Source of the DNA: Escherichia coli
GTDB taxonomy: Bacteria > Pseudomonadota > Gammaproteobacteria > Enterobacterales > Enterobacteriaceae
Assembly: GCF_050320075.1 (NCBI RefSeq)
Contig: NZ_CP190018.1
Length of the DNA stretch: 64,000 nt
Reading direction: 5' to 3' (one strand)
In this document: positions 38,814 to 39,824 of the stretch, piece by piece
Numbering within the stretch: position 1 is the stretch's first letter
Layout: every line of letters begins with the position of its first letter
Notes under the pieces: model-generated
The model's input: only the letters and a program-made list of their open reading frames with translations
Databases searched by the model: none
What the model was told of the DNA's origin: nothing
Translations under genes and position numbers: made by a program

Positions 38814-39168
38814 TTGAGCCTGTAACTGTATGATTTTAAAGATGTAGATTAATTGAGTTTTGAAATCGTATATCCAAACGTATAACTAAAATGATTTGCT
38901 GCAAAAATGTACAGCTTTAACCGTTATCATTTTCCGGCTATTCGCTATGAAGCTGGCTGGTGGATAAGCACGGATAACCTGACATCTACAGCCGCCTTAA
39001 AAGCTGAACCCGACAAGCATATCGGCATCATGCCCACCAGCGTGACGCATTTTTTTAATTGCGCGGGCGTAAAAATTTGACGGGGCGGACAGTTCCATAA
39101 GTAATGGATTGCAGGAATTTCGCCCCCCCTCCTGAATGCAATTTTTCGTATATATATACAAAACCACC

Positions 39169-39291
39169 CGTCCCACCTGTCCCGCCTGTCCCACTGGCAC
39201 CTAACAAATTGATTTTGTTAGAAATAAATTAGGTAAGGTAGGACAAGTCCAGGCTGTTTTGGGACAAGTTGGGGGGGAGGTGGGACAAGTC
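39169..39291. repeat. iteron cluster A (TGTCCC-type repeats in both orientations around an AT-rich palindrome)
   Basis: Three direct copies (CGTCCCAC, CTGTCCCGC, CTGTCCCAC; 9-bp spacing), AT-rich centre with CTAACAAA-ttgat-TTTGTTAG, then three inverted copies (G)GGACAAGT at ~20-bp spacing; flanked by C7 and G7 tracts. Confidence 0.7.
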
Positions 39292-39824
39292 GAGCGAGTG
39301 AATCAAGCCGTGTTAGCGCGGTAAAGCGACAGTGCCGCCGCAATTTTGCGTTGTCGGGAGGCCACCGTAACAGCCACCATACGCGCACAATCTTCGGTGG
39401 TAACGCAATCCAGACGTGCGCAACATCCCCAGATAGGAAATCATTACCTAGCACAGCTAATTGCGCCAGAATCGATTACAGCGCGTTTCTGTGGCATTCA
39501 AGAACGGCTATCACTAGTGTATTGATATGTAATCCGCATATGAGTTTAAGCAACAAAATGATCCCCTTTCGAAAAAGGCACTAACCGTTTTTTCCGAAAT
39601 GATCCGTTGGTGATTTTGTAACTTATTGTTTTGTAGATGTAATTTTAAACTTGATAGGGTTATAAATAGGGGGCGTTTTTGTCAAGAATTGCAAATAATG
39701 CTCGTTTATTGTTCTTTGTTTGTTTGTTTTCTGTTCGTTGATGGGGGATCATTTTGCACTTTTTGGGGGATCATTTCGGAGGGGGGGGGCTGGCAACACG
39801 CCAGCACCCTCGATGCGTTTGTTT

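Follow-up and report, generated by a model that had tools for sequence, protein, structure and literature searches.

A phage satellite between yejO and tRNA-Pro

The stretch of DNA analysed here, referred to as the window, comprises 64,000 nucleotides of the Escherichia coli chromosome (contig NZ_CP190018.1) and contains an 8.2-kb integrative island located between yejO (36102–38693, + strand) and tRNA-Pro(GGG) (46974–47050, − strand). The subject of this study is cluster A, an array of short repeats (iterons) at 39169–39290, which an earlier note on this DNA had placed near the distal end of the island and which indeed lies approximately 365–495 bp inside that end as measured from the attR core. 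All genes of the island are on the minus strand and encode an integrase, an AlpA/excisionase-like helix-turn-helix protein, an Icd-like protein, two small open reading frames (ORFs) including a DUF4222 protein, a DUF927 primase-helicase (rep), SSB, a ProQ/FinO-like protein, PerC and a 69-aa ORF; the gene set includes no par genes and no terS, rpp or capsid genes. Rfam comparison identified a C4/CI-type antisense RNA (78.7 bits) in tandem with isrK (61.6 bits) at 44485–44673 (−), which together are a P4-type immunity region. The RefSeq annotation over this region is an 'ash family' pseudogene. The island is bordered by an intact attL core (TGGTCGGCACGAGAG, 46974–46988) formed by the 3′ end of tRNA-Pro and by a remnant of the attR core (TGGCACGAGAG, 38795–38805) that pairs with it. 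The gene set, the C4/CI RNA and isrK pair and the att cores together identify the island as a phage satellite of the phage-inducible chromosomal island (PICI)/P4-like kind.

Organization of cluster A and its counterpart next to rep

Cluster A consists of two sets of three iterons in opposite orientation on either side of an A+T-rich core. The inner set (39169–39194) is built from (C/T)GTCCC(A/G)C units at 9-bp spacing, namely cGTCCCAC (CGTCCCAC) at 39169–39176, TGTCCCGC at 39178–39185 and TGTCCCAC at 39187–39194. The earlier note had described these as three direct copies of TGTCCC(A/G)C, and its position, count and spacing are correct, except that the first copy reads CGTCCCAC and not TGTCCCAC. 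The outer set (39240–39290) contains the three inverted copies that had also been described, of the form (A/G)GGACAAGT, at a spacing of exactly 21 bp instead of approximately 20 bp. Its first copy, aGGACAAGT (AGGACAAGT) at 39240–39248, matches at eight of nine positions and is followed by GGGACAAGT at 39261–39269 and 39282–39290; among six homologues the first position is occupied by GGGACAAGT in five and by GGGACGAGT in L005. The cluster had additionally been described as flanked by C7 and G7 tracts, and both coordinates hold (39123–39129 and 39271–39277), although the C7 tract lies outside the iteron array, within a cos site related to that of phage phiP27, and the G-run is a non-conserved spacer of varying length.

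The core (39195–39239) is 71% A+T and is probably where melting or bending takes place. Within the surrounding 3 kb no 30-mer is less stable than the one at 39202–39231 (top 0.15% of the window), and on the minus strand at 39202–39214 the core has a match to the integration host factor (IHF) consensus that is one of six WATCAANNNNTTR matches in the 64 kb. The perfect palindrome claimed for the core (39201–39221) is exact in the window, with CTAACAAA (39201–39208) and TTTGTTAG (39214–39221) separated by ttgat, but it is not conserved. Its left arm carries three uncompensated changes in L022 and L025, which indicates that the palindrome was not selected as a hairpin, and this candidate was rejected.

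Counting both strands, the window has 15 copies of the six-nucleotide motif GGGACA, below the mean of 23.7 in shuffled sequence, and 10 of these copies fall in two stretches of approximately 130 bp (39178–39287 and 41448–41578). This clustering is not due to chance. The second stretch belongs to the sole other GGGACA cluster of the window, referred to here as cluster B (41445–41580), which has the design of cluster A in inverted form and aligns with it as an inverted repeat (I1, 51 nt, 76%). Its order is ACTTGTCCC at 41445, 41466 and 41487 (21-bp spacing), TTGTCCCAC at 41500, a core of 70% A+T at 41509–41562 and GGGACAGGTGGGACAAG at 41564–41580, the last part containing two GGGACA copies at 9-bp spacing.

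Cluster B occupies part of the 236 bp that separate ssb from the rep stop codon and is therefore immediately 3′ of rep, as is the published PICI origin (PMC6092414). Cluster A does not occupy this position and begins 2.3 kb past the rep stop codon, after ssb, proQ, perC and the small ORF. The rep gene itself (41606–43741, −) encodes a 711-aa protein matching Pfam DUF927 (E = 9.5e-46) and the DNA primase family phrog_1139, and its homologues of solved structure include the 'Pathogenicity island protein' of PDB entry 8tch (E = 1.1e-14) and SCCmec Cch (5dgk).

Cluster A lies in a region that had been described as approximately 1 kb without a convincing ORF, and this was confirmed as no conserved ORF was found in 38810–39827. 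Coding potential of this region was rejected because the indels among homologues (C6/C7, a (TA)+2 change in the (TA)5 element described below, and the length of the G-run) are not multiples of three; a 57-aa plus-strand ORF at 38907–39080 is out of frame in five of seven homologues. No RNA family was detected by Rfam in 38700–40100 at a permissive threshold, its only hits being C4 and isrK at 44485–44673 and the tRNA. A sigma-70 promoter scan had no hits in cluster A or at the (TA)5 element and thus gave no support for a Rep-regulated outward promoter.

Iteron words follow the Rep C-terminal domain

Related islands were compared through Rep relatives in 17 Enterobacterales genomes, 35 IMG/VR loci sharing a conserved flanking element and several E. 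coli genomes. As to the comparison that the earlier note had proposed, on whether both clusters are conserved together, A and B modules recur in the 17 Enterobacterales and 35 IMG/VR loci. The usual layout, judged from about 40 of the related loci, is rep followed by B and then A as one dyad of approximately 330 bp with about 12 iterons, each module contributing about six, and the set of three iterons at 9-bp spacing is present with lineage-specific words in every A module. Iteron number varies by whole units: an 11-bp insertion in L025 adds one ACTTGTCCCAC to B, and a 9-bp deletion in L022 removes one unit from A.

Six iteron words were distinguished by lineage (GGGACAAG, GGGACRAC, GGGAYAAG, TAACCCRC, TGAACCAAC and TGAACCGR). 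In joined origins B and A always have a common word, and at loci where the distal A is the only A its word matches that of B. The word tracks the C-terminal approximately 100 residues of Rep and not the Rep core. This was most evident in six E. coli-type Reps associated with TAACCCGC iterons, which are 94–95% identical to the window Rep over residues 171–600 and 34–36% identical over residues 611–711. The C-terminal domains of these six proteins are instead 67–70% identical to those of Tenebrionibacter and Winslowiella Reps that use TAACCCAC, the respective cores being 71–74% identical. As judged from these alignments, this is a swap of the Rep C-terminal domain with co-swapped iterons, and we infer that the last 100 or so residues form the iteron-recognition domain. 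An AlphaFold2 model of the C-terminal 152 residues had a mean predicted local distance difference test score of 50.8 and was unusable.

Of the available evidence, this co-swap speaks most strongly for both clusters as binding arrays for the Rep C-terminal domain, a role that is predicted for each of them, and the co-variation also agrees with the specificity of iterons for their cognate Rep that is characteristic of PICI origins. The earlier note had suggested a two-site replication or partition-like cis system. The presence of the same word and architecture 3′ of rep, together with the co-variation of word and Rep C-terminal domain, makes a two-site replication system the best reading, while the partition part of that suggestion is unsupported, the island having no par genes.

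The cos site and the (TA)5 element

A cos site of the phiP27 (HNH-cos-terS) type is located at 39052–39132 and is 80.7% identical over 82 bp to the annotated cos of phiP27, an Stx2e phage with the gene order HNH, cos, terS, terL. The cosN-equivalent at 39082–39091 is GGGGCGGACA in comparison to GGGGCGGGCG in phiP27. No other non-coding segment is as well conserved among the homologues as this one (2.5% variable columns), which by its resemblance to the phage site marks the island as a putative cos-packaged satellite.

Between the cos site and the inner iterons of cluster A lies a conserved element, TTTTTCGTATATATATACAAAAC (39142–39164), referred to here as the (TA)5 element, that contains the perfect 12-bp palindrome GTATATATATAC (39148–39159) and ranks among the top 0.5% of least stable 30-mers. 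Every A module ends in this element, which reads GTTTTGTATATATATACGAAAAA on the other strand, and it flanks the 9-bp iteron set whatever the iteron word and across genera (35 IMG/VR and Enterobacterales loci; L006–L021 and L026–L063). It is found beside genes as well as beside cos. Possible roles are as a start site for primase, in unwinding or in the binding of a host factor.

Split and joined origins

In the window the two modules are separated by ssb, proQ and perC and a further 0.8 kb or so of non-coding DNA. The order rep, B, ssb and cargo, A, (TA)5 and cos, with cognate iterons and conserved relative orientation, is referred to here as the split layout and occurs in three iteron lineages. 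The distance between modules is 2.2 kb in the E. coli and Escherichia albertii yejO islands, 4.8 and 6.2 kb in two Serratia islands with TGAACCAAC iterons, and 7.5–10.5 kb in four TAACCCGC islands. No description of a split, cos-linked dyad was found in the accessible literature. A satellite origin made of Rep and iterons is of a known kind, and the split dyad with one half fused to cos is a variant arrangement of it.

A different situation was observed in islands that possess a joined B and A and additionally a distal A. The words of the proximal and distal modules differ in L003 (GGGACRAC and TAACCCGC) and L026 (GTAGACAG and TAACCCGC), and more mildly in L002 (GGGACRAC and GGGACAAG). These three islands (L002, E. 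coli BHD6; L003, STEC367; L026, BH100) are strongly mosaic and made of separately recombining blocks (Rep N-terminus, Rep C-terminal domain plus iterons, cargo, distal A and cos type), with apparently recurrent breakpoints at the (TA)5 linker and where the Rep core meets the C-terminal domain. An island with only B next to rep and a non-cognate distal A was not seen among the examined loci. This distribution is suggestive, rather than decisive, of one cognate A being needed per island.

Comparison with known replicons

A close likeness is to the origins of PICIs and Staphylococcus aureus pathogenicity islands (SaPIs), including SaPIbov1, SaPI1 and EcCICFT073. These origins likewise have oppositely oriented sets of short iterons around an A+T region, their initiator is a DUF927/MCM-like self-loading helicase whose C-terminal domain provides specificity, and the island context is also comparable (int, alpA, pri-rep, ori, perC, cos). 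Iteron recognition in SaPIs falls to a winged-helix domain at the C terminus of the Rep helicase, and a pair of hexamers is believed to load, flanking the A+T region (PMC9371898). The differences are that published origins are immediately 3′ of rep, whereas cluster A is at the island end beside cos, and that the origin of the window's lineage is a dyad of two units that is split here.

The P4 satellite offers a parallel in organization. It possesses two clusters of one initiator repeat that are kilobases apart on a small satellite replicon, one directly downstream of the primase-helicase gene and one close to attP; in its GenBank annotation crr (4291–4590) is beside the alpha gene and attP, ori (9086–9809) is 4.7 kb away, and the same 8-mers occur in both. 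Both P4 sites are reportedly required in cis and bound by the alpha protein. The rest of the window's island is also P4-like (CI/C4 RNA, isrK, icd and ash-like region). In contrast, the P4 repeat word is TGTTCACC, crr consists of two 120-bp direct repeats and not of an iteron-AT-iteron unit, and the site next to the replication gene is crr in P4, with ori being distal. No match of Rep to P4 was obtained by tblastn, and alignment of the C-terminal domains with hhalign gave a probability of 0.1%. This lack of homology to P4 alpha indicates that cluster A is not a member of the P4 alpha/type-I-repeat family.

Clusters of one initiator's sites that are kilobases apart and communicate by looping or pairing are known from R6K (gamma, alpha and beta), P1 (incA) and F (incC). 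Cluster A and cluster B would resemble them in this respect. The plasmid initiators (pi, RepA and RepE) are unrelated to Rep, however, they serve stable plasmid maintenance and not a burst before packaging, and the plasmid control loci have no A+T-rich core of their own.

Proposed role of cluster A and alternative explanations

We regard it as very probable, given the shared architecture and co-varying words, that cluster A is a Rep-iteron module homologous to half of a PICI origin. That it also functions as a second replication site is a weaker claim, which we consider only somewhat favoured over its converse. Cluster A would be the A module of a two-module PICI-type origin and provide six predicted sites for the Rep C-terminal DNA-binding domain, and the complete dyad of approximately 12 iterons would be enough for two Rep hexamers. 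Following induction and excision, both arrays would be bound by Rep hexamers via the C-terminal domains, after which Rep would melt the A+T cores and self-load as helicase. Cluster B would be the primary origin and cluster A a second, origin-like Rep-loading site, and the two may cooperate in cis over 2.2 kb, probably by looping as proposed here by analogy with P4 ori and crr, or may act as two initiation sites. The resulting concatemers would be cut at the adjacent cos by a helper phage of the phiP27/HK97 type.

A further proposal can be made tentatively, and we think it rather doubtful. The origin of this lineage may be obligately two-part, with exactly one cognate A per island working over distances of up to 10 kb. 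The A-(TA)5-cos segment of approximately 250 bp would then be a portable cassette for replication and packaging that islands exchange with one another, and Rep loading beside cos would couple initiation, or the polarity of concatemer synthesis, to packaging by the helper phage.

Several observations weigh against a functional role of cluster A. Variable alignment columns were compared across the same six genomes and amounted to 2.5% in cos, approximately 4% (and one 11-bp iteron insertion) in cluster B and 21% in cluster A, so that cluster A evolves about five times faster than B and is clearly less constrained. Damage to its iterons consists of one mutated copy in the window (AGGACAAGT), another in L005 and the loss of one 9-bp unit in L022. 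Iteron cores were less variable than spacers (7/48 in comparison to 24/88 columns), although this trend was non-significant (p = 0.13). The distal A modules of L003, L026 and, more mildly, L002, whose words are unlike those of their own proximal origins, show that A can persist without a cognate Rep. Matching words in split islands can also be explained by descent and block recombination. No A was found within the DNA fetched for L011 and L012, which show B only. Lastly, in the characterised EcCICFT073 the origin is joined, its iterons are GTAGACAG and neither of its two lambda-type cosN sites has iterons beside it, so that the published model case differs from the cos-linked split layout. The weaker constraint on cluster A can be interpreted as that of an accessory site with some tolerance of change, or else as slow decay.

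The second of these interpretations leads to the alternative that survives best, namely that B alone is the origin and cluster A is a non-functional orphan half kept by its physical linkage to the cos site, which is under strong selection, and to the conserved (TA)5 linker. The faster evolution and damaged iterons of A, its non-cognate distal copies and the two B-only loci are all in keeping with such a relic, as is the fact that SaPIs need no more than one iterons-AT-iterons unit for a complete origin (PMC9371898). Set against this, six iterons at exact 9-bp and 21-bp spacings have been kept despite a divergence that altered most spacer positions, a cognate A is present in every assessable B-only island across three iteron lineages and four distances, and a non-cognate A occurs only where a complete B and A origin adjoins rep. 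On balance we consider the relic explanation unlikely.

Less probable still is a negative role for cluster A, in which it would bind Rep as a copy-control or handcuffing locus of the P1 incA or F incC type by titrating Rep or pairing with B. In iteron plasmids such as P1 and F, control loci classically consist of an additional cluster of initiator sites located away from the origin next to rep, and cluster A is arranged likewise. Unlike the inc loci, cluster A has its own A+T core between inverted iteron sets and is a full origin-type unit. It is also an integral, adjacent part of the origin dyad in most relatives, and strict copy control would be of little use to a satellite whose replication is a burst ahead of packaging.

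The proximity of cluster A to cos raises the question of a packaging signal, in which cosB- or cosQ-like repeats with an IHF bend would be recognised by terminase or by a redirecting protein instead of Rep. Cluster A is approximately 75–200 bp from the cosN-equivalent and has its IHF match between repeat sets of both orientations, comparable to the R3-I1-R2-R1 order of lambda cosB (PMC6739421), which is also within about 200 bp of cosN. By the phiP27 gene order, however, cluster A is on the HNH side of cosN and not on the terS/cosB side. Its repeats are identical to those next to rep and track the Rep C-terminal domain rather than cos type or terminase. In other islands at least three cos variants are joined to a common linker and TAACCCGC A module, and conversely the phiP27-type cos is found with both GGGACAAG and TAACCCGC modules. 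Joined-layout islands have A without an adjacent cos, and the window's island possesses neither a terS nor an rpp gene. As the repeats follow Rep and not packaging specificity, a cosB-like role is argued against and appears highly improbable.

The least probable alternative, that cluster A consists of integrase or excisionase arm-type attP sites or is a partition centromere, draws on its distance of approximately 365–495 bp from the attR core and is opposed by the same word beside rep 2.2 kb inward, by the absence of a GTCCC cluster near attL on the int-proximal arm, by a better arm-type candidate (CGTATAWC..AAAC) common to both att arms, by the lack of par genes in the island and by the presence of the TAACCCGC module at three integration sites (tRNA-Pro/yejO, next to clpS and next to smrA), which shows that the module does not follow the integrase.

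The preferred reading of cluster A as one half of a two-module origin has consequences beyond this locus, as PICI/P4-like satellites play a major part in horizontal transfer in Enterobacteria and vectors for delivery are being engineered from them. A dyad of two predicted Rep-loading units that can be separated by kilobases, with one of them fused to cos, would define the minimal cis DNA for replication and packaging. The co-swapping of Rep C-terminal domain and iterons may also serve as a ready-made specificity code, with six words on one helicase scaffold, for studying how self-loading helicases read their origins. If cluster A is dispensable, it would instead be an example of origin fragments hitch-hiking with cos during mosaic island recombination.

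Additional features of the island

The attR core of the window is shortened (TGG----CACGAGAG), and small indels distinguish the strains at this site; among the homologues the full 15-nt core TGGTCGGCACGAGAG, matching the tRNA end, was kept in L022 only. The island of this window may excise poorly given its shortened core. Both att arms carry CGTATA(A/T)C..AAAC(G/A)TATAACTAAAA repeats (38866–38905 and 46801–46868; direct repeat D1, 39 nt, 77%) that are likely arm-type sites of the integrase.

Chi sequences (GCTGGTGG) were identified in opposite orientations at the distal edge of cluster B (41414–41421, −) and between cos and attR (38956–38963, +). The former is at the same junction in L011, L014, L015 and L021. 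Its candidacy as a recombination joint was rejected as it is not kept in the TAACCCGC split islands.

Downstream of perC, the 69-aa ORF (39828–40034, −) matches phrog_7206 (E = 1e-6) and has 2.4% variable columns. The segment adjoining cluster A at 39293–39545 is also well conserved (5.5% variable columns) and contains no convincing ORF or RNA match.

A third repeat system is located between this segment and the 69-aa ORF at 39556–39777, where AAATGATCCCC (39556) and AAATGATCCG (39598) face two copies of GGGGGATCATTT (39744 and 39765; 21-bp spacing). The intervening A+T-rich DNA (135 bp) reaches, in its least stable 30-mer, the top 0.17% of the window, and GATC is present in every one of the repeats. 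This system has a different word from cluster A and is a separate feature; it could be another origin-like or operator site, or could be what the earlier note had called its cluster B. It was found only in the island family of the window (67 E. coli genomes), where its repeats are better conserved than its core.

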